From a virus (Duplodnaviria; Heunggongvirae; Uroviricota; Caudoviricetes): a DNA stretch of 16,261 bases. The DNA lies in IMG/VR virus record IMGVR_UViG_2547132421_000009. One strand, 5' to 3'. A program made the translations under genes and the position numbers. The first letter of the stretch is position 1, and every line of letters begins with the position of its first letter. Under the pieces are notes generated by a model. It searched no databases. It saw only the letters and a program-made list of their open reading frames with translations, and was not told the origin of the DNA. This document shows positions 1-13,001 of this stretch, one piece after another.

Positions 1-869
1 CTAAGCGAGGTTCTGGTTTCCAAATTGTTCCGGACTGAGGCCGCCACACCAACTGTGCCGCCGCCACCGATTGTAATCACATTCGATATAATTAAACACC
101 GTTGCCCGCATTATTTCCCGGCTGATAAAGTGTTCTCCATGGATACATTCCACTTTCAGCGAATGAAAGAAGCTTTCCACGCAGGCATTATCGTAGCAGC
201 AACCTTTTGCGCTCATACTTCCACGCAGATTATGCCGCTTCAGTTGCGCCTGATAATCTGCTGAACAGTACTGGCCTCCACGGTCCGTGTGAACGATAAC
301 GTTCCGGGGCCTCTTACGCCGCCACAGCGCCATCTGCAGGGCATCGCAGGCCAGTTGCGCCGTCATGCGTGGCGACATTGACCAGCCAATAACGGCACGT
401 GACCACAGGTCAATGACCACTGCCAGATACAGCCAGCCTTCATCTGTACGTAAGTACGTGATGTCTCCTGCCCACTTCTGGTTCGGGCCACTGGCGTAAA
501 AATCCTGCTCCAACAGATTTTCTGACACAGGCAGGCCGTGTGCGCGGTAGCTGACCGGGCTGAACTTCCGGGAGGCCTTTGCCCTCAGTCCCTGACGGCG
601 CAGGCTTGCCGCCACGGTTTTTACGTAAAGGGGTACCCTGAGCACGCAGTTCATCCGTCAGGCGTGGGGCACCGTAACGCTGTTTTGACCGGGTAAAGCC
701 GCGAGGACAACGCTGTCGCAGTGTTGGCGGAACTGCTGACGCGTGCTTATCCTTGTCCGCCGCTGACACCACGTATACCAGCCGCTGCGGGCCACCCGGA
801 GCACGCGGCACATTGCTTTGATGCTGAACTCAGCCTGATGTTTTTCAATTCAATAAAGACATACTTCAT
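1..869 (-). pseudogene. insF: IS3 orfB DDE transposase (InsF-like) split across three reading frames
   Basis: Consecutive InsF-like segments lie in different frames: MKYVFIE then a stop; [28 protein letters not shown]...VVLAA; [21 protein letters not shown] (frame of ORF 440-811); [12 protein letters not shown]...DDE core...SPEQF (ORF 1-654). This implies at least three small indels relative to an intact 288-aa orfB. Confidence 0.7.
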
Positions 870-1165
870 TTCAGGCGCTTCGCGAAGTATGTCGCGGCCT
901 TTTGGAGGATAGCCAGCTCTTCATCCCGTTCTGCCAGCTGGCGTTTGAGACGTGCAATCTCGGTAGACATCTCCAGTTCACGTTCAGAAGACGTCTGCTG
1001 ATTTTGCTGTTTACTGCGCCAGTTGTAGAGTTGTGATTCATACAGGCTGAGTTCACGGGCTGCGGCAGTAACACCGATGCGTTCAGCAAGCTTCAGGGCT
1101 TCACTGCGAAATTCAGGCGAATGCTGTTTACGGGGTTTTTTACTGGTTGATACTGTTTTTGTCAT
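866..1165 (-). CDS. insE: IS3 orfA transposase subunit (InsE-like, 99 aa from the ATG at 1165)
   Basis: Translation MTKTVSTSKKPRKQHSPEFRSEALKLAERIGVTAAARELSLYESQLYNWRSKQQ...AKRLK; GAGGTG Shine-Dalgarno 5 nt upstream of the ATG. The ORF track extends it to 1174 from a GTG. Confidence 0.85.
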   Translation of the reverse strand: MTKTVSTSKKPRKQHSPEFRSEALKLAERIGVTAAARELSLYESQLYNWRSKQQNQQTSSERELEMSTEIARLKRQLAERDEELAILQKAATYFAKRLK

Positions 1166-1342
1166 GTGAGTCACCTCTGACTGAGAGTTTACTCACTTAG
1201 CCGCGTGTCCACTATTGCTGGGTAAGATCATTACCAAAAGACTGCCGAATAATCTTCTTCCATGGCAAACCGCGACCGCGTGAAGTGTCAGAGGATTGGC
1301 TTCCTCTCATTAGCGCGTTTTTTGAGCGAGAATCAGAATAAT

Positions 1343-1372
1343 ATTGCTCTAATAATTCAATATTTTTAAAAC
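1343..1372 (+). promoter_or_regulatory. C1 operator-like 17-mer (ATTGCTCTAATAATTCA, 1343-1359) with embedded promoter-like elements TTGCTC -17 bp- TAAAAC
   Basis: 14/17 match to the P1 C1 operator consensus ATTGCTCTAATAAATTT. Lies upstream of the plus-strand genes at 1423 and 1643. Confidence 0.6.
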
Positions 1373-1422
1373 GTGATGTACACTCATAACGTTTTTTATT
1401 AGAACAATCTACAAGGTGCACT

Positions 1423-1641
1423 ATGTGGCCATTCCGACGGAAATATCACTACTGGCTGATCGCCTTTGTTACGCCGACCGGCGGTATCAGGCATGTCATC
1501 ACCAGGTATCGCAACAAGAGACTCACCTTAGCCAGAATTTTACAGGCTGCCATAGGTGAGGGACTGGATACAAATTGCGTAGTCCTTCCTCCTTCATACT
1601 TAGGAAAAATGACCGAAGCACAAGCTAATACGGAACTTTGA
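1423..1641 (+). CDS. hypothetical small protein (72 aa)
   Basis: ORF with AAGGTG Shine-Dalgarno 6 nt upstream; its TGA stop (1639-1641) lies one base before the ATG of the next gene (1643). Composition is not strongly protein-like. Confidence 0.3.
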   Translation: MWPFRRKYHYWLIAFVTPTGGIRHVITRYRNKRLTLARILQAAIGEGLDTNCVVLPPSYLGKMTEAQANTEL

Positions 1642-1642
1642 A

Positions 1643-2905
1643 ATGAGCACTTCAGCACAAAACCAATCAATCGAAAATGTATCTATCCCTGACGTCCTGA
1701 ATGCCGGTATCCCGGCCATTATCCAGAACATCCGGGCCGCGCAACGCCGCGTTAGTTGTGATGACCTCACAGCGCGTTTTTTTGATAATGCGGTTCAGTC
1801 AGCGGAGATGCTTCACGCACAGCTTATTGATGTTTATAACGCAGAAGCTGATAGCCATAACTCCCTGGTAGATGCAGCTGAAAATATGCAGTTGGATCTC
1901 GGTCTGAAGGGTAAAGAAATTGAAGAGCTTCAGCTGCAAATTGAACATTTGAAACGCCAGCAACAGGACGCGATCGACGATGCGACGCATGACGCCAACC
2001 AGCGTGCTGATAATGCCGAACGTATAAGCATTGAGCTGGAAACAAAACTCAATGAAATGACCGCGATGGTTGAACTGCGGAACTCACAGATTTCAACGCT
2101 AAAATCTCAATATAAAGAGATCATGAAACTTGATCCTTTTAACCTTGAGAAACGCTATAACAAAGCTAAAAGCGAGCGACAGGAACTGCGTAAGCAGGTC
2201 GCCGATCTTAACCAACAGCTCAAAAAAACTATTAAAGATGCAAGCGAAGCGCGCGTGGCATTTGCTAATAAAAAAGCAGAGGTTACCGCGCTGGTTAATG
2301 AAAATGCTAAATTTGCGACGCTCAAGAAGGAAATGTATGGCATTACTGAGCGCCGTTTTCCTGCAAGCAAACTCCATCCGACGTTAGGGCAAATCTCATT
2401 CTTCCCGCGCCTCCTGGCTTATGGGATCTCATCGCCTAAAGAGTTCAATAACGAGCGTCCTTATATCGTTTCTAAGCTGGACTTTGCTTATCAGTTCTGC
2501 TGCGACATGGGCTATGCCATTGATATCCGAATCAACGAATGGTTGATGCCAAACTTCCAGCCGTTGGCAATTTTCCGCGAGTTCCAGCCGGAAGGTTGGG
2601 TAGAGTTCTTCCATGAATTGATCTGTAAAGAGATGGAAAGCCGCCGCCCGGAACTGGTCCGTCGAGTTGAGTGGGCGCAAGAGGTTATGTTGGCAGATGC
2701 AGAGCTGCCGTTCGAACCGGAATTTATTGATGATCTGGCAGCTAAAGGGCTGCATACCCTGTTTGATGTGGTTACCCGCCGTCATGAGCAGTTGGTTGTC
2801 GAATTGGGTTTAGAGGAAACAGCGGCAAGAAGACTTCTTGATGTTTGCTATGCACTTAGCGATGCATGGGAAAAAGTGAACGGCGGCACTATTTACGTTC
2901 GCTGA
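1643..2905 (+). CDS. hypothetical protein, 420 aa, N-terminal ~220 aa predicted coiled coil plus C-terminal globular domain
   Basis: Long ORF with heptad-like charged N-terminal half (EELQLQIEHLKRQQQ..., ELRKQVADLNQQLKK...) followed by a strong intrinsic terminator. No family recognised. Confidence 0.6.
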   Translation: MSTSAQNQSIENVSIPDVLNAGIPAIIQNIRAAQRRVSCDDLTARFFDNAVQSAEMLHAQLIDVYNAEADSHNSLVDAAENMQLDLGLKGKEIEELQLQIEHLKRQQQDAIDDATHDANQRADNAERISIELETKLNEMTAMVELRNSQISTLKSQYKEIMKLDPFNLEKRYNKAKSERQELRKQVADLNQQLKKTIKDASEARVAFANKKAEVTALVNENAKFATLKKEMYGITERRFPASKLHPTLGQISFFPRLLAYGISSPKEFNNERPYIVSKLDFAYQFCCDMGYAIDIRINEWLMPNFQPLAIFREFQPEGWVEFFHELICKEMESRRPELVRRVEWAQEVMLADAELPFEPEFIDDLAAKGLHTLFDVVTRRHEQLVVELGLEETAARRLLDVCYALSDAWEKVNGGTIYVR

Positions 2906-2927
2906 TAGTTACAGTGTCACTTTTAAT

Positions 2928-2958
2928 GCTGGTGGAGTGCGCCCACCAGCATTTTTTT
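2928..2958 (+). terminator. Rho-independent terminator (GCTGGTGG-agtgcgc-CCACCAGC followed by ATTTTTTT)
   Basis: 8-bp perfect stem, 7-nt loop and a T7 run, 23 bp after the stop of the 420-aa gene. Confidence 0.7.
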
Positions 2959-2977
2959 CGTCCAATGAGGAGGGCAT

Positions 2978-3484
2978 TTGAGTATTTTCAATAAACACGC
3001 ACACCAGGAACGTCCGTACATTGTCATAGTAGATATTGATGGAACGATATCGGAGGCAACGGAAGACAGGCTGCATTTACTTCCACCGCCTGGCAACGGT
3101 GCATTAACAGAGCACTGGAACGAGTTTAACCTTGCCTGTGACACTGATGCTTCCATCACTCCAGTTATTGATATGGTGCGCCAGTTGTCCAGCATTTACA
3201 CGCTCTGGTTTGTAACCGGGCGCTGTGAGATAGCCAGGGATAAAACACGAGCCTGGTTGCGTAAGCACGTAACAAATGGGGCAGAGCCTTTGCTATCTAT
3301 GCGTCCCGCCACCGATGACAGAAATGACGGTCCAGCAAAGATTGATCTCCTTAAGAAAATTGGTCTAAGCAAAATTGCGTTCGCGCTGGAAGATAAGATT
3401 GAAGTGGCGCGTGTTTTCAGGAGGCACGGCGTGCTTACGTTAATGGTCAGGGAGTATGAAAACGCGCTTCTCCATCAACAATAA
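2978..3484 (+). CDS. HAD-superfamily phosphatase-like protein (168 aa), TTG start
   Basis: GGAGG Shine-Dalgarno 4 nt before TTG. HAD-like motifs: motif I VDIDGT, motif II LWFVTGR, a conserved Lys (WLRKH) and an acidic motif ATDDRNDG. Confidence 0.55.
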   Translation: MSIFNKHAHQERPYIVIVDIDGTISEATEDRLHLLPPPGNGALTEHWNEFNLACDTDASITPVIDMVRQLSSIYTLWFVTGRCEIARDKTRAWLRKHVTNGAEPLLSMRPATDDRNDGPAKIDLLKKIGLSKIAFALEDKIEVARVFRRHGVLTLMVREYENALLHQQ

Positions 3485-3513
3485 TTGCTCTAATAAATAA
3501 TGATTTTTAAAAC
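3484..3513 (+). promoter_or_regulatory. C1 operator-like 17-mer (ATTGCTCTAATAAATAA, 3484-3500) with the same TTGCTC -17 bp- TAAAAC architecture as the 1343 module
   Basis: 15/17 match to the C1 operator consensus; near-identical ~30-bp module to 1343-1372; sits in front of the 3583-6387 gene block. Confidence 0.6.
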
Positions 3514-3531
3514 AGAGAAAGTGAAAATAAA

Positions 3532-3553
3532 AACATGCCGCAAGGCGCGGCAT
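3532..3553 (-). terminator. Hairpin CATGCCGC-aagg-CGCGGCATG, followed by a U-run only on the minus strand
   Basis: Perfect 8-bp inverted repeat. The minus strand reads hairpin then TGTTTTTATTTTCAC; the plus strand has no U-tract, so it could alternatively be a 5'-leader structure of the downstream operon. Confidence 0.35.
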
Positions 3554-3582
3554 GTATCCAATCAATCACAGGAGCTGAAAAT

Positions 3583-3669
3583 ATGAACACGGCATTCAAA
3601 ATCATTATGGCCGCGATCTATTTCTGGCTGTTCTCTATCACTTTTGGCGGCATCGTCGCACATGGGTAA
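3583..3669 (+). CDS. small hydrophobic peptide, 28 aa (MNTAFKIIMAAIYFWLFSITFGGIVAHG)
   Basis: AGGAG Shine-Dalgarno 8 nt upstream of the ATG; single predicted transmembrane-like segment; its stop overlaps the Shine-Dalgarno of the next gene. Below the ORF-track length cutoff. Confidence 0.35.
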   Translation: MNTAFKIIMAAIYFWLFSITFGGIVAHG

Positions 3670-3678
3670 GGGGGATGC

Positions 3679-4257
3679 ATGAAAGGCGAAGTGAAAGAGC
3701 GCGGCATGATTTTTAACGATGAGATGGTCCGGGCAATTCTTGGCGGGAATAAAACACAGACTCGCAGGATTGTTGAAGAAAAATTCTATGGACGGGCAGT
3801 GGCCGCAGAGTTGCTTGCCAAGCATTGTCCATATGGTCAACCGGGCGATCGTATTTGGGTTCGCGAAACCTACCGGGTACATGGCAAAGCGACGGACGTC
3901 GCAACGCTGGTTTATCGCGCAAGCGTGCGTAACTCCTGGACAGAACAAACGCACCGGGTTCCGGTCGAGGTTTGTAATAAACCAGTATCAGAAAAGTGGA
4001 CGCCATCAATTCACATGCCGCGCTGGGCATCGCGCATTCTTTTGGAAATTACCGACGTGCGTGTGGAACGGCTGCATGACATGAGCGAGGAAGATGCTAA
4101 AGCAGAAGGCGCAACTCCGGCGACGTACAAGATTACGCCATCTGAAGCTGTTTATCGCGTTGGTTTTGGTGATATCTGGCGCAGTATTTACGGGCAGGAT
4201 AACTGGCTATCTAACCCGTTGGTATGGGTAATCGAGTTTAAGCGCATTCAGGAATAA
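3679..4257 (+). CDS. ASCH-domain protein (192 aa)
   Basis: AGGGGG Shine-Dalgarno. Motifs resemble ASCH/PUA-like proteins such as E. coli YqfB: EMVRAILGGNKTQTRR near the N-terminus, GDRIWVRE, and C-terminal WVIEFKRI. Confidence 0.6.
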   Translation: MKGEVKERGMIFNDEMVRAILGGNKTQTRRIVEEKFYGRAVAAELLAKHCPYGQPGDRIWVRETYRVHGKATDVATLVYRASVRNSWTEQTHRVPVEVCNKPVSEKWTPSIHMPRWASRILLEITDVRVERLHDMSEEDAKAEGATPATYKITPSEAVYRVGFGDIWRSIYGQDNWLSNPLVWVIEFKRIQE

Positions 4258-4260
4258 ACC

Positions 4261-4634
4261 GTGAGTATGCATCAAGTCGTCAGCTTTTCAGGTGGACGAA
4301 CATCGGCTTATCTCGTTCATCTGATGGAAGCACAGCGAAAAGCTGGCGTTAGCGTCCATTTCATTTTTATGGATAGCAGAACTGGAAAGCAACGAAGTCC
4401 GTGAAGTCGGAAATCAGTTTCTTGTTGTTCGCCATCCTGGGAAAACTCCTGTCATCAAGCACTGCACTGGTGACCTGGAAGAGTTTCTGCGGAAGTTAAT
4501 CGAACAAGACCCGTTAGTAACTATCGACATCATTACGCATCGCTATTACGGGATTGGCGGTCAATGGGTTCAGGATGCAGTTGAGTATCTGCATATGATG
4601 TCTGACGCTGGCATTCGCATCAAAGGAGAGTGAT
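4261..4634 (+). pseudogene. PP-loop (SGGxxS) PAPS-reductase-like gene remnant, split between two frames
   Basis: Frame 1 from GTG 4261 / ATG 4267: MHQVVSFSGGRTSAYLVHLMEAQRKAGVSVHFIFMDSRTGKQRSP, stop at 4402-4404. Frame 2 continues without a start from about 4325 to the stop at 4631-4633: ...EVREVGNQFLVVRHPGKTPVIKHCTGDLEEFLRKLIEQDPLVTIDIITHRYYGIGGQWVQDAVEYLHMMSDAGIRIKGE. The combined length (~125 aa) is too short for an intact PP-loop enzyme. Confidence 0.4.
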
Positions 4635-5150
4635 ATGGCGTTAACACACCGCGAACTCTGTCAGATTGCGTACAAGTTCCTTAAGCGCAACGGGTTCAAG
4701 GTTTGTTTTCATGACCGCTTTATAGCTGTAACCAGTACCGGAGAACAGCCAGATGCTATGGGATTCAGAAATTCAGCATCATGCCTGATAGAGGCGAAGT
4801 GTTCTCGTGCTGACTTGTTGGCAGATAGAAAAAAGCGTTTTCGTAAAAATCCGTCTCTTGGAATGGGCGACTGGCGATTCTTTATTAGTGAGCCGGGAAT
4901 TATTTCAATTGAGGATTTACCACCTGGCTGGGGATTACTTCACGTTGTTAACGGAAGAGTACGGAAAGTACATGGGTGGCCCAAGGGTAATTGCTGTTGG
5001 GGTAATCCTGACGATAAGCCATTTACTGGAAATAAGCAGGTTGAATGCGATTACATGTTATCTGCATTAAGGCGCATGGAGTTGAGAGGGCACCTTAATG
5101 AAATATATGACGGTGTAATTGTTAATAAGAAAGAAGGAAACGCGGCATGA
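4635..5150 (+). CDS. putative PD-(D/E)xK-type nuclease-fold protein (171 aa)
   Basis: AAGGAG Shine-Dalgarno 7 nt upstream. Candidate catalytic motif ...GEQPD(39)AMGFRNSASCLIE(53)AK(55)... with spacing typical of restriction-endonuclease-like folds. Confidence 0.45.
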   Translation: MALTHRELCQIAYKFLKRNGFKVCFHDRFIAVTSTGEQPDAMGFRNSASCLIEAKCSRADLLADRKKRFRKNPSLGMGDWRFFISEPGIISIEDLPPGWGLLHVVNGRVRKVHGWPKGNCCWGNPDDKPFTGNKQVECDYMLSALRRMELRGHLNEIYDGVIVNKKEGNAA

Positions 5151-6028
5151 CCACTATTACCAAAGAGCGACTACTGACAATCAAGCAGTGGCGCGAAACA
5201 TACGGACCTGGTAGCAACGTTGTACTGCCAGCAGAAGAAGCGGAAGAACTGGCACGAATTGCTCTGGCATCACTGGAAGCAAAACCAATAGGTGCATTCC
5301 ACATTGCAGAACAGCAAGTTGACGGCACAAGTGACTACCTCAAGGATGGAGAATGGCCTATTGATAATGGAATTATTGAGGTCTACGCCGCTCCCCCCGT
5401 TCCAGTAGTACCGGAAGAAAAACCAATGCCTAACGCTCTAAGCATGCTTGAAAGAGAGATCACACAACTGATTGGTGATGCGCAGGAAGCCACTGTTACT
5501 GGCTATGAGTTAATCGCTGAAGCTTGGCGTTTGATGGATGGACAAGACCCTAAAACCAGCGATTGGCATAGCAAGGCTTCGAAGTATTTAAATTCCAATA
5601 TTGTAGAAAAAGTTGATGATGACCGTATTGATGCAATTAAGGCTGTTTTGCGTAGACTGGCTGGCAACTATCCGGATATTCCGGATAGTTCGGTGCCTAC
5701 GCCAGGAAAGGGCGTCACCGGTGAACGTATCCGCATTAAGCCGCATGTTTATCGCGAACTGGTTAACCGTCTCCACGATACAGCGATCAAGTGTGCTGGC
5801 ACCCAGCAATTACGAGAAAGAATTAGCCGTGTTTTGGGCGACGTTATTACGCCATATCATCATAAACAAGCCGAGAAAAGCGGTCTGGAAAGGTGTCATC
5901 TTGAGGCAGCATTAAACATTAAGCCGGGGCATACGCTTGGCATTATTGATGCACTGTTGGTTCATAAGATGGCCAGGGCTTTATTGTCGTTGGTGGACGC
6001 TGGTGATACAAGCGAGGGTGAAGTATGA
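5147..6028 (+). CDS. hypothetical protein (293 aa)
   Basis: Long ORF whose ATG overlaps the stop of the upstream gene (ATGA) and whose stop overlaps the next start; no family recognised. Confidence 0.6.
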   Translation: MTTITKERLLTIKQWRETYGPGSNVVLPAEEAEELARIALASLEAKPIGAFHIAEQQVDGTSDYLKDGEWPIDNGIIEVYAAPPVPVVPEEKPMPNALSMLEREITQLIGDAQEATVTGYELIAEAWRLMDGQDPKTSDWHSKASKYLNSNIVEKVDDDRIDAIKAVLRRLAGNYPDIPDSSVPTPGKGVTGERIRIKPHVYRELVNRLHDTAIKCAGTQQLRERISRVLGDVITPYHHKQAEKSGLERCHLEAALNIKPGHTLGIIDALLVHKMARALLSLVDAGDTSEGEV

Positions 6029-9836: not shown

Positions 9837-10883
9837 GTGAAAGCCGTAATTACTCCCTTTGTACAGAAAGAGCTTGGCCTCGCCACGTTCAAAGTGGATC
9901 AGGAGGTCAGAAAGCTGGTGGAGGCTGGCCGTAAATTTATTATGGAGCCGGTGCCGCGTGAGTTAATCGAGCACATGGAAGACGGCCTCGTTGTTACCGA
10001 GCAAACCATGGCAACAAATGAGGCGTTGCAGCCGTTTTTTAACAGCGATGAACTGTTTCGCCGTATTGGTGGAATTGACGCGCTGGTGGCGTGGTTGCGT
10101 AGGAAAGAGGGTCAATGCCAGGCCGCAGATCGTAGTTGGTGTGACAACCATATTGTCCACGCTGAACGAGACAATAGCGCGGTGTTGTTGTGCTGGCATC
10201 ACGATAACCATTACCGGATGCGTGGTTTTAATGAGCTGAAAGAAACGCTGCACAATAATCGCGTTAACTGGATACTGGATGTCGCCCGTCAGGAAATGGG
10301 CCTTTCAAATAGCCATGATTTAAGTATTCAGGGGCTGTGCTGGTGGGCTTTCATGCGCAACATGATGCACCTGATGCCGGAAGAAGTCTGCCGCATATCA
10401 ATAATAAATAAGATGAAGGCTACTCCGCAGGATAGTGGACCACTGAAAGAGGCGGATATTCGCCCGTATGACGATCGCGCTACAGCATATGTTCAGATGA
10501 TGGAAGAACGCGCCGCGCCGATGCGTGCAAAAGTATGCCCTGTGGATGTTGACTCCGACCCAGGTATGGCGCATTTCAAAATACCAAAACTGCAATCGCT
10601 AAAATTACCTGAGTACATGGACTTTGTTGCTTCCCGTCCATGCTGTGGGTGTGGAGCGGCGGGAGCTGGCGCTCACATTACGCCTTATATCGTTCGTTAT
10701 AGTCGATTATGCGCGCATGACATTTATGCTATTCCTCTGTGCCAGTCATGCCAGCGTGATATTGAGCGTGACCGCGATAATTGGGAGAAGACGCACGGTA
10801 GGCTGGCGATGCATCAACGATTGTTCTTTGATTACGCGCTTGGAGTCGGCGCTATCACAAGTCATTCGTCGAGCGTTAGATAA
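9837..10883 (+). CDS. hypothetical Cys/His-rich protein (348 aa), GTG start
   Basis: AAAGG Shine-Dalgarno 6 nt before GTG. Cys/His clusters [12 protein letters not shown] and CCGCG...H...C.H......CQSCQ suggest a zinc-binding or HNH-like module. Confidence 0.6.
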
Positions 10884-10971: not shown

Positions 10972-12117
10972 ATGTTACTTAACTGGCAGGGACGCCACTT
11001 CATGGAAATAAATCACTCACGAATAACATCGTACGAGATTGCGGATTACATGATCCGCACTAAATCTCTTCTATCAGCGAAAGAACTCGCAGCAATTCTT
11101 GAAAAGGAATACCCGCATCTGGATGTCGATAAGCGCGATGTTTATCTGCGCTTAAAGGCTATCGCTGTGACCGATATCCGTGAATACCTGCTCGAACAGG
11201 GTCATCTGAATTACGCAACCGTCGCAGCCGAAGCACGCAAGGAGGCACACAGAATGAAAGCAACTAACGTTAAATCAGAAAAAATTCATGCAACTTCAGT
11301 TCAGGAATCAGAGCTGGTGGTTGTTCAGAATCAGTCTGATGAAATTCCCGTTCTGGAATGGCTGGGAGTGCGTGTAGTAACGACCGAAACTCTTGCTAAG
11401 GGGTATGGAACCGATGAAGCTAATATTCGTAAAAATTTGTCTCGCAACTCCGATCGCTTTGAAGAAGGTAAGCATTACTATCTCTTAACTGGTTCAAAAT
11501 TAAAGGAATTTAAAAGGCTGGTGACTACTAGTCACCTGGTTAGCAAATATACAAGCCAGGTAATTCTTTGGGCCGAACGCGGAGCGGCACGCATGTCTAA
11601 GATCGTAAACACAGATGAAGCATGGGCATTCTTTGAAAAACTGGAAGACAGCTACTTCCGGCAAAAAGAACAGCAACCGGTCGCAATCCCCCAAACACTA
11701 CCTGAAGCCTTGCGCCTGGCTGCCGAGCTGGCTGAACAAAAGCAGCTACTGGAACAGAAGGCCCACCAGCTAAATCAACAACTGGTGGCCGCAGCCCCCA
11801 AGGTCGATTTTGCCGACCGTGTATCAGTGGCTAAGGGGATCCTGATTGGTAATTTTGCAAAGGTTGTTGGGCTGAAGCAAAACGCGCTGTTTGCCTGGTT
11901 ACGGGAGAACGGCATTCTGATAGCGTCCGGCGGGCGTAAAAATGTGCCGTTCCAGCAGTACATAAACGCCGGATATTTCACAGTGAAAGAAGTGGTGCTG
12001 GATGATGAAGATGGCTACCAGATACGGCTGACGCCCCAATTAACGGGGAAAGGACAACAGTGGTTGACGCGTAAACTGCTCGATGCTGGCTTGTTAAAAC
12101 CGGTGGCGGCTGAATAA
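10972..12117 (+). CDS. antirepressor-like protein with ORF6N and KilA-C (ANT) domains (381 aa; start could instead be the ATG at 11002)
   Basis: Central region VRVVTTETLAKGYGTDEANIRKNLSRNSDRFEEGKHYYLLTG...LWAERGAARMSKIVNTDEAWAFFEKLEDSYF fits ORF6N; C-terminal region ...NFAKVVGLKQNALFAWLRENGILIASGGRKNVPFQQYINAGYFTVKEV fits KilA-C. Confidence 0.7.
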   Translation: MLLNWQGRHFMEINHSRITSYEIADYMIRTKSLLSAKELAAILEKEYPHLDVDKRDVYLRLKAIAVTDIREYLLEQGHLNYATVAAEARKEAHRMKATNVKSEKIHATSVQESELVVVQNQSDEIPVLEWLGVRVVTTETLAKGYGTDEANIRKNLSRNSDRFEEGKHYYLLTGSKLKEFKRLVTTSHLVSKYTSQVILWAERGAARMSKIVNTDEAWAFFEKLEDSYFRQKEQQPVAIPQTLPEALRLAAELAEQKQLLEQKAHQLNQQLVAAAPKVDFADRVSVAKGILIGNFAKVVGLKQNALFAWLRENGILIASGGRKNVPFQQYINAGYFTVKEVVLDDEDGYQIRLTPQLTGKGQQWLTRKLLDAGLLKPVAAE

Positions 12118-12149: not shown

Positions 12150-13001
12150 TTATTGCGCGCTTTCGGGGTTGTCGTTTACTGGCTGCCCCTTCTTAGTTTT
12201 ACGACTGCGCGTAACTGATGCGGCTGATTTGACCTTTTTCTCTTCGCGAGTGATGGCAATTTGTTTTTTTACATTTTCAATATCTGCCAGGCGATATATT
12301 TTTGCCTGCGGCCAGCGGTCGCAGATGATCGGTTCTATGGAGTCATAAAGGCTAAATTTTGCTTTCTCGAATTCACCGTTGATGATGATTCCATCACGGA
12401 GGGTTTCATCGCAGATAAACACGCCACACAGTGGCACATGGTAACTAACTGATTTACCATCATTGTAGTTAGGGCTACTGGAAATGTAGTGGACGCGCAG
12501 CATTGTTTCGCTAAAGCCGTGTACGCGCATACGGAATTTTTCATCCTCCGGGTACTGCTTCATTAGCTCTTTTGTTGCTTCCAGGTTCTCTATGTATTTC
12601 GCACTGTGCTCATTGAACCCCGCGCTTTTTTGGATGCGAATATCCTTATCAATCAGATGAATAATGCGGCCAGCGGTCATGTTGACGCTGTTCACAGCTT
12701 CTGTCTGATAAGTTGTAACCTTACGTACACCGCGAAGGATGTTAGGCACTGGATATAAAATAGTCTTTGGGATATTGAGGTCTGGGTACTGTTCCAGTTC
12801 CCGCGCCATTAAAGTCCATTTATCAATTTCAGCCTGAATGCTGTCCGTTTCTTTGAACGGCAGAACGACAACCGGGCGAACAGGACGACCGTCGCTGGCG
12901 GCATCAACGTGTTGGGCGCGTGCAACAGCTTTTTTTAGAAAGAGATCCCTGAAGCTGACGAACTCCTGGTACAGTTGTTCGCCGTAGACATAATTTATCA
13001 T
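12150..13001 (-). CDS. c1: C1 repressor of lysogeny (283 aa)
   Basis: 283-aa ORF (MINYVYGEQLYQEFVSFRDLFLKKAVARAQ...) matching P1 C1 in length and sequence as recalled; GGAGG Shine-Dalgarno; adjacent to coi and to the C1 operators near loxP. Confidence 0.9.
   Translation of the reverse strand: MINYVYGEQLYQEFVSFRDLFLKKAVARAQHVDAASDGRPVRPVVVLPFKETDSIQAEIDKWTLMARELEQYPDLNIPKTILYPVPNILRGVRKVTTYQTEAVNSVNMTAGRIIHLIDKDIRIQKSAGFNEHSAKYIENLEATKELMKQYPEDEKFRMRVHGFSETMLRVHYISSSPNYNDGKSVSYHVPLCGVFICDETLRDGIIINGEFEKAKFSLYDSIEPIICDRWPQAKIYRLADIENVKKQIAITREEKKVKSAASVTRSRKTKKGQPVNDNPESAQ

Follow-up and report, generated by a model that had tools for sequence, protein, structure and literature searches.

Predicted domain structure and gene partners in the pmgR-pmgS-pap segment of a P1-like phage-plasmid bordered by IS3

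Bacteriophage P1 (AF234172 / NC_005856) carries the genes pmgQ, pmgR, pmgS and pap, the last three of which are named shtA, shtB and pap in phage P7. In-frame deletions of P1 pmgQ, pmgS and pap all plate normally and show normal anti-restriction, and the list of P1 virion proteins obtained by liquid chromatography-mass spectrometry (LC-MS) contains neither PmgS nor Pap (Gonzales et al. 2022, PMC9024508). Deletion of pmgR, in contrast, yields no plaques and leaves unjoined tails and incomplete heads, a phenotype that resembles that of a pacA deletion; pmgR is essential (PMC9024508). A CRISPR interference (CRISPRi) screen classed pmgS and pap as non-essential (PMC10695390), and the 21 most conserved genes of 77 P1-like plasmids include pmgR and pmgS (PMC9603915). 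In this study, we analysed a stretch of viral DNA of 16,261 nucleotides (IMG/VR record IMGVR_UViG_2547132421_000009), the whole of which is referred to here as the window. We concentrated on positions 1343-3484, where an earlier note, made from the sequence alone, had proposed an operator-controlled pair of genes encoding a 420-residue coiled-coil effector and a phosphatase next to an IS3 insertion.

Identity and regulation of the segment

We compared positions 1231-3700 of the window with phage records by megablast, and 19 P1-group records, among them P1, P7, SJ46, RCS47 and JL22, matched at 97-98% nucleotide identity over 2470 bases with a coverage of at least 99%. At the protein level, PmgR was 100%, PmgS 99% (over 420 residues) and Pap 95% identical to the P1 proteins. 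The window shares with P1 the gene order, the C1 operators OpmgRa, OpmgRb and OpmgT, the promoter, the terminator and the TTG start of pap, and its operators, promoter and TTG start agree feature by feature with the GenBank records of P1 and P7. The regulatory region and the spacer between pmgS and pap could be aligned base for base to P1, with three point differences in the regulatory stretch, one of them in OpmgRb. Judged by these matches, the region is almost certainly the pmgQ'-pmgR-pmgS-pap segment of a P1-like phage-plasmid. The locus is already known, an ordinary and near-identical copy of an annotated P1 segment, and the finding as such matters little, since the P1 genome paper already gave a base-by-base annotation of this segment of a textbook phage.

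To locate binding sites of the C1 repressor, we scanned the window for the operator consensus, a 17-bp asymmetric site (ATTGCTCTAATAAATTT), at up to three mismatches, and obtained seven matches in the whole window against 0.10 expected by chance. OpmgRa (formerly Op86a; 1343-1359, plus strand) reads ATTGCTCTAATAATTCA, agrees with the consensus at 14 of 17 positions and differs from P1 by one base, at position 17. It overlaps the -35 element of the predicted sigma-70 promoter PpmgR (1344-1372, plus strand), with TTGCTC at 1344-1349 as -35 and TAAAAC at 1367-1372 as -10; this promoter was transferred from the P1 annotation through the alignment, and a generic promoter scan did not detect it. Positions 1343-1372, read in the earlier note as a C1 operator and promoter module, coincide with OpmgRa and PpmgR as annotated in P1, so the first operator was correctly recognised, while the second, OpmgRb (formerly Op86b; 1392-1408, minus strand), had been overlooked. 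OpmgRb reads ATTGTTCTAATAAAAAA and is placed by P1 and P7 annotation together with the alignment. Relative to both phages it carries a C-to-T change at conserved core position 5 and was for this reason not found in our mismatch-limited scan; the change could make C1 bind less tightly to this second operator of PpmgR. We also noted an A/T-rich hairpin at 1369-1400 (plus strand), between the -10 element of PpmgR and OpmgRb, which in P1 reads AAAACGTGATG-TACACT-CATCACGTTTT and is followed by a T-run; it looks like a terminator for transcripts derived from pmgQ, and in the window its stem has one mismatch (C to A). A further C1 operator, OpmgT (formerly Op88; 3484-3500, plus strand), agrees with the consensus at 15 of 17 positions, is annotated in P1 and P7, and opens the next operon.

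Downstream of PpmgR lie pmgR (72 residues; 1423-1641, plus strand; PHROG 3177) and pmgS (420 residues; 1643-2905, plus strand), whose product matched PHROG 1660 at E = 1e-194 over residues 1-420. The stop codon of pmgR ends one nucleotide before the ATG of pmgS (TGA-A-ATG), an arrangement of translational coupling. Behind pmgS, at 2925-2960 (plus strand), we found an intrinsic terminator with an 11-bp stem containing six G-C pairs, followed by seven T residues; the hairpin occupies 2925-2953, its folding energy is -26.5 kcal/mol (z = -3.0), and P1 and P7 have exactly the same sequence. The small open reading frame (ORF), the 420-residue coiled-coil protein behind it (helix 15-232 in the AlphaFold model) and the strong terminator described in the earlier note were thereby all borne out. 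In the proposed scheme, the C1 repressor would bind the two operators that flank PpmgR, so that the lysogen would not express pmgR and pmgS, and both would come on early once the prophage is induced or a cell is infected. Upon derepression, PmgR and PmgS would be made early, and their common transcript would stop at the strong intrinsic terminator.

Predicted domain structure of PmgS and its partner gene

We modelled full-length PmgS with AlphaFold (predicted local distance difference test, pLDDT, 75; predicted template modelling score, pTM, 0.42) and obtained a near-continuous helix from residue 15 to 232, followed by a globular C-terminal part. The helical part is made up of a helix at residues 15-35 and two others of great length (41-159 and 166-232). 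The two long helices (residues ~41-232; 1763-2338, plus strand) are separated by a break at a K-E-x-M-K-L-D-P motif, where the pLDDT dips (157-165); this is the most conserved motif of the family, with K158, E159, L163, D164 and P165 invariant. In the model, the helices probably form a folded-back antiparallel coiled-coil arm with a conserved apex. The next part (residues ~235-347; 2345-2683, plus strand) is a confidently modelled alpha/beta domain of three to four strands and three helices, which matched nothing significantly in the PDB and shows no conserved catalytic-type constellation of residues. The protein ends in a tandem helix-hairpin-helix domain, (HhH)2 (residues ~350-413; 2690-2881, plus strand), of the type found in the RAD51 N-terminal domain, the NusA AR repeats and the C-terminal domain of the RNA polymerase alpha subunit (alpha-CTD).

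Three kinds of evidence bear on this last assignment. When residues 228-420 were modelled again with 27 diverse homologs, the pLDDT rose to 91 and the pTM to 0.85, and a Foldseek search with the model agreed with (HhH)2, the five-helix fold with two helix-hairpin-helix units being present. A profile of 54 family members matched the RAD51 N-terminal domain (E = 7e-8) and the alpha-CTD (E = 1e-6), both mapping to PmgS residues ~351-407. In addition, Pfam HHH_5 was found in 14 of the 54 members and RNA_pol_A_CTD in 12. The model, the Foldseek result and the family-profile matches together indicate that the last ~64 residues of PmgS are an (HhH)2 module. The C-terminal domain of about 200 residues that the earlier note had called unrecognised is therefore recognisable at its end, and the description still fits residues ~235-347, which match no solved structure.

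We then compared PmgS with known proteins that contain similar parts. Compared with the RAD51/RAD51C N-terminal domain, NusA AR1/AR2 and the alpha-CTD, PmgS combines the module with a coiled coil of ~190 residues and an orphan alpha/beta domain, and has no ATPase core. SMC, Rad50 and LmuB likewise have a long helical arm with a conserved break, and weak sequence matches to them were obtained (E = 1e-3 to 1e-4); PmgS lacks their ABC ATPase head, hinge and zinc hook. An assignment of PmgS to the SMC/Rad50/LmuB type was rejected, as only the coiled coil aligned, at 15-19 bits against cut-offs of 300-1000 in PADLOC and NCBIfam, a compositional similarity, and Pfam gave no ATPase. Two other candidates were likewise discarded: a PDB search with the single PmgS sequence returned coiled-coil noise (keratin, L29), and a PD-(D/E)XK-like reading of D288...D294-x-R296 failed because these residues are lost in a homolog of 27% identity.

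An exhaustive profile search gave 118 cluster representatives (at 50% identity) of the PmgS family, the full-length ones mostly of ~340-470 residues. Close homologs were confined to P1-like elements of Enterobacteriaceae. An alignment-based scan of viral sequences for PmgS loci returned near-identical P1 relatives and nothing else, and two further profile scans for related loci, one of genome contigs and one of viral sequences, gave no matches. In most family members the (HhH)2 domain is neutral to slightly basic and carries a KGIGEKT hairpin, whereas the P1-type domain has a net charge of -8, a pI of 4.4 and a degenerate second hairpin (ELGLEE / LGLEE). In character, the P1-type domain is nearer to the protein-binding NusA AR repeats than to the DNA-binding RAD51 N-terminal domain.

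PmgR is a basic protein with a pI of 10.1, and we investigated whether its gene accompanies pmgS in diverged elements. A PmgR homolog was encoded directly upstream of the PmgS homolog in all four diverged loci of large P1-like or D6-like elements: L004 (PmgS 53% identical; PmgR match E = 4e-20), L003 (27%; E = 4e-11), L089 (22%; E = 2e-7) and phage D6 (20%; E = 2e-9). All PmgS variants with a PmgR neighbour have acidic (HhH)2 domains, with net charges of -3 to -8. This pattern hints at a complex of PmgR with PmgS, although only four or five lineages stand behind it. By this comparison of gene neighbourhoods, the conserved evolutionary partner of pmgS is pmgR and not pap.

The pairing proposed in the earlier note, a functional two-gene module of PmgS and Pap, fared differently. 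All close P1-group genomes have the two genes side by side, L004 keeps both with one 101-residue ORF between them, and in a transcriptome preprint pmgS and pap shift in the same direction in an hfq mutant. However, adjacency within the P1 group simply reflects whole-genome synteny at 97% identity, and the strong, fully conserved terminator separates the two genes. Moreover, L004 was the only one of nine diverged loci examined in which a Pap homolog lies near the PmgS homolog; none was found within 5-6 kb of it in L003, L086, L088, L089, D6, Aeromonas phage phiARM81mr or the Vibrio phage described below. Both products are named P1 proteins, PmgS and Pap, with functions that are predicted only, and such orthology, which the note itself had taken to speak against its pair, is thus largely in place. 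Nothing marks PmgS as an effector. The neighbourhood comparison and the conserved terminator together lead us to reject the pairing and support a PmgR-PmgS unit; the comparative context largely refutes a PmgS-Pap module, which we consider extremely improbable.

Predicted roles of PmgS and Pap

Database labels assign PmgS to virion assembly: it is listed as a 'putative morphogenetic function' in P1, its P7 counterpart ShtB as 'sheath contraction', the D6 homolog as 'prohead scaffolding protein', and the PHROG as 'PmgS-like head morphogenesis'. In line with these labels, PmgS is rich in coiled coil, like scaffolding proteins, and the adjoining gene pmgR is required for complete particles. The published phenotypes point the other way, since P1 plates normally without pmgS, CRISPRi knock-down has no effect, and the protein is missing from the virion LC-MS list. 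This viability and this absence leave the labels 'morphogenetic', 'sheath contraction' and 'prohead scaffolding' unsupported for PmgS. Nor does PmgS otherwise resemble a scaffolding or sheath-assembly protein, as it is expressed from a C1-controlled sigma-70 promoter and not from a late promoter, and its diverged homologs lie in early recombination and methylase regions. We therefore regard a role in virion morphogenesis as very unlikely. The value of this result for annotation is modest: morphogenetic, sheath and scaffolding labels that are spreading to PmgS homologs are probably wrong.

The gene neighbours of diverged PmgS homologs outside the P1-like phages were then considered. In prophage L086 (2426-6161), genes for a PDDEXK exonuclease and RecT lie directly upstream of the PmgS homolog. 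Aeromonas phage phiARM81mr has, in order, exoVIII, RecT, integrase, a 58-residue ORF, the PmgS-like gene, a 151-residue ORF and Dam methylase; Vibrio phage 1F273_PE002 has YfdP, YfdQ, the PmgS-like gene and a methyltransferase; and in L088 (3674-6380) a C5-methylase gene precedes the PmgS homolog. By their gene content, these homologs are placed in early DNA-metabolism regions and not in structural modules. The loci of the Aeromonas and Vibrio phages are covered by L091 (2462-7875) and L092 (3496-6576), and L086 and L088 are viral or prophage contigs. The 'head morphogenesis' label that these genes inherit does not reflect this recurrent association.

With moderate to low certainty, we conclude that PmgS is not a virion or assembly protein but an early accessory factor, for which an early DNA transaction or counter-defence is more likely than morphogenesis. 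As to mechanism, PmgS would probably dimerise through its coiled coil, and its head, formed by the orphan alpha/beta domain and (HhH)2, would engage DNA or a partner protein. For the P1 lineage, with its acidic (HhH)2, that partner is probably the basic PmgR. PmgS would probably act in phage DNA transactions (recombination, replication or the supply of packaging substrate) or counter host interference. We hold this mechanism to be possible rather than probable. In its most specific form, PmgS would belong to an uncharacterised early family of temperate phages, built of coiled coil, orphan domain and (HhH)2, that acts on the ends or recombination intermediates of phage DNA or opposes a host system attacking them, and that has become acidic and coupled to PmgR in the P1/D6 lineage; the phenotype of the pmgR deletion could then reflect a failure of packaging substrate and not of head-tail joining. 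This version is put forward tentatively, and we think it unlikely to hold in every part.

The main rival to a role in DNA transactions is counter-defence or host takeover by PmgS, alone or together with PmgR, in which the acidic (HhH)2 would bind not DNA but a host protein, for example a nuclease, the RNA polymerase alpha-CTD or an SMC-like defence complex. An early protein that is dispensable on laboratory K-12 and yet extremely conserved among P1-like plasmids would fit such a role, as would the resemblance of its acidic (HhH)2 to the protein-binding NusA AR repeats and the frequent methyltransferase and recombination-gene neighbours, among which anti-defence genes tend to cluster. However, PmgS belongs to no known anti-defence family, its PADLOC matches reflect coiled-coil composition only, and the pmgS deletion behaves normally against EcoA, EcoB and EcoK restriction. 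Furthermore, in most members outside the P1 lineage the (HhH)2 is neutral or basic and its GIG hairpins are canonical, in keeping with DNA binding. We consider this rival unlikely; the gene neighbours that recur in the family point to recombination, replication or protection of DNA.

Unlike pmgS, pap (168 residues; 2969-3484 including the ribosome-binding site, plus strand) has its own initiation signals, a GGAGG at 2969-2973 and a TTG start at 2978, four bases after the GGAGG; the P1 record has the same start. Pap matched Pfam PF25109 HAD_PNKP with 43.8 bits against a cut-off of 27.6 (E = 3.5e-11) and PHROG 415, labelled 'polynucleotide kinase', at E = 4.5e-55. A profile built from ten homologs, down to 57% identity, matched the phosphatase domain of T4 Pnkp in the PDB (5uj0, E = 7.7e-6), full-length T4 Pnkp (1ltq) and Pnkp1 (4xrp). 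The alignment pairs D19-I-D21-G-T23 of Pap with FDVDGT of T4 Pnkp, CDTD with CDTD, T80-G-R82 with S-G-R, the cluster of R, D and K residues at 109-121 (R109/D113/R115/D117/K121) with RKDD, and E138-D139 with D-D. The motif residues, including the catalytic Asp pair of DxDGT in motif I (nucleophile and acid/base), are invariant across the ten homologs. The earlier note had suspected a separately initiated HAD phosphatase with recognisable motifs and had asked whether it was the P1 Pap; both points hold.

With T4 Pnkp and Pnkp1, Pap shares the HAD fold family PF25109 and the motifs (S/T)GR, R-D-x-R-x-D-x-x-x-K and (D/E)D. It differs from T4 Pnkp in lacking the P-loop kinase domain and an associated RNA ligase, in having E-D rather than D-D in motif IV, and in an insert of ~28 residues after motif I. 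The PHROG and PDB alignments cover the phosphatase part alone, and Pap is accordingly not a bifunctional kinase-phosphatase. We strongly infer from these sequence relationships that Pap, as a stand-alone HAD phosphatase, belongs to the 3'-phosphatase type of T4 Pnkp, and it most likely removes 3'-phosphates from nucleic-acid ends or hydrolyses 3'-nucleotides.

The name of the gene refers to an acid phosphatase, and the class-B (AphA-type) family from which it derives was tested and rejected, as PF03767 gave 13.2 bits against a cut-off of 27 (E = 0.064). A broader alternative would make Pap a general acid phosphatase or a nucleotidase supplying nucleotide metabolism, and not an enzyme that heals nucleic-acid ends. 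The phosphatase of T4 Pnkp also acts on 3'-mononucleotides, a generally known activity that would accommodate this alternative; the weak class-B match and the fact that no kinase or ligase partner is visible near pap point the same way. The class-B match, however, lies far under its cut-off whereas that to HAD_PNKP lies above its own, and the closest solved relatives are polynucleotide kinase-phosphatases. In addition, the N-terminus of Pap (MSIFNKHAHQERPY), as read from the sequence, contains no hydrophobic signal sequence, unlike those of the periplasmic class-B enzymes. We consider the acid phosphatase alternative quite unlikely, and Pnkp-type 3'-phosphatase would be the better name for Pap.

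Located behind the terminator and initiated at a TTG codon from a ribosome-binding site of its own, pap is an independent cistron and not a partner of pmgS. A candidate late promoter lies at 2906-2927 (plus strand), where TAGTTACAG and the TTTAAT behind it are similar to the -22 element (AAGTTACTT) and the -10 element of the P1 late promoter LPhot; within it, AGTTAC at 2907-2912 resembles the -22 element of P1 late promoters. Transcription from there would start within the left arm of the terminator of pmgS, and pap transcripts could in this way avoid being terminated.

Taken together, the identity of the segment, its regulation, Pap and PmgS are best explained as set out above, an account that we hold to be probable as a whole. 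Several points weigh against it. The folded-back coiled coil depends on a full-length model with a pTM of only 0.42, and the single PmgS sequence gave no Pfam domain at threshold, no HhH model included. The acidic charge and the degenerate hairpin make direct DNA binding by P1-type PmgS doubtful. Neighbourhoods from about five diverged phages are a small sample, and adjacency is weak evidence since the early regions of temperate phages are mosaics. Deletion of pmgR is lethal and that of pmgS silent, so that PmgR cannot depend on a complex of the two for its function. No promoter of pap was detected by the generic scan, and the P1 record annotates none. Finally, the functions of PmgS, PmgR and Pap are predictions from sequence. 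The additions to knowledge are modest and comprise the (HhH)2 assignment, the domain map of PmgS, the partnership with PmgR and the early-region context of the family. Three functionally blank P1 genes, pmgR, pmgS and pap, thus gain predictions, which could bear on how P1 DNA is prepared for packaging.

The IS3 boundary and other genes of the window

The window begins inside an IS3 element and contains 1230 bases of it (1-1230, minus strand), the window edge cutting the element, so that sequence beyond IS3 cannot be read from the window. The part present includes orfA (866-1174) and a part of orfB (rve; 1-654), with Pfam matches to HTH_Tnp_1 and rve/rve_2/rve_3, and its inverted terminal repeat ends at 1230, reading ...GGGTAAGATCA. 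The plasmid NZ_CP135674, 99.9% identical, labels the element 'IS3-like element IS3 family transposase'. Immediately adjacent, positions 1231-1341 (plus strand) are the last 111 nucleotides of pmgQ including its TAA stop, colinear with AF234172 82040-82150 (pmgQ being 81449-82150), with additional substitutions relative to P1. IS3 has thus cut pmgQ and yet spared the operator and promoter. In contrast to P1, pmgQ is interrupted 113 bp upstream of the operator, and the suspicion that the insertion had disrupted the upstream context, raised together with a boundary at 1230, proved correct. On the far side of the same IS3, NZ_CP135674 carries unrelated non-P1 DNA (a TetR fragment and bcsC), so the P1 backbone may be truncated here and not just interrupted. 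The sequence of the window is probably a contig that was broken in the repeated insertion sequence.

On the other side, the window departs from P1 3' of pap and is of the P7/SJ46 type (upf86.8-like), not P1 pmgT. Behind OpmgT we found P7/SJ46-type genes at 3679-4257, 4635-5150 and 5147-6028 (plus strand) in place of P1 pmgT/U/V. One of their products, of 192 residues, is P7 upf86.8-like, belongs to PHROG 874 and shows weak similarity to ASCH; the proteins of 171 and 293 residues beside it have no known function.

Lpa is the late-promoter activator of P1. Farther along the window, a 381-residue ORF (10972-12117, plus strand) is chimeric: its first ~60 residues are the N-terminus of Lpa (positions 1-60 of the 131 of PF25716), fused to ORF6N and KilAC antirepressor domains; related coordinates are 9837-10883 and 12150-13001 (minus strand). 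P1, P7 and SJ46 carry pacA and pacB between pdcB and c1; both genes are missing here, and 12.2 kb of the window maps to 17.3 kb of SJ46. With a chimeric Lpa and without pacA and pacB, the element appears to lack a late activator and terminase, and to be a defective P1-derived plasmid.

Among the P7/SJ46-type genes, we also observed a 47-residue ORF at 4261-4404 (plus strand), which starts with MSMHQVVSFSGGRTSAY, a motif of the PP-loop-like SGGxxS kind, before it stops, followed by ~230 bases without a long ORF. This ORF looks like the remnant of a truncated gene, and NZ_CP135674 carries an ISVsa5 insertion in that neighbourhood.

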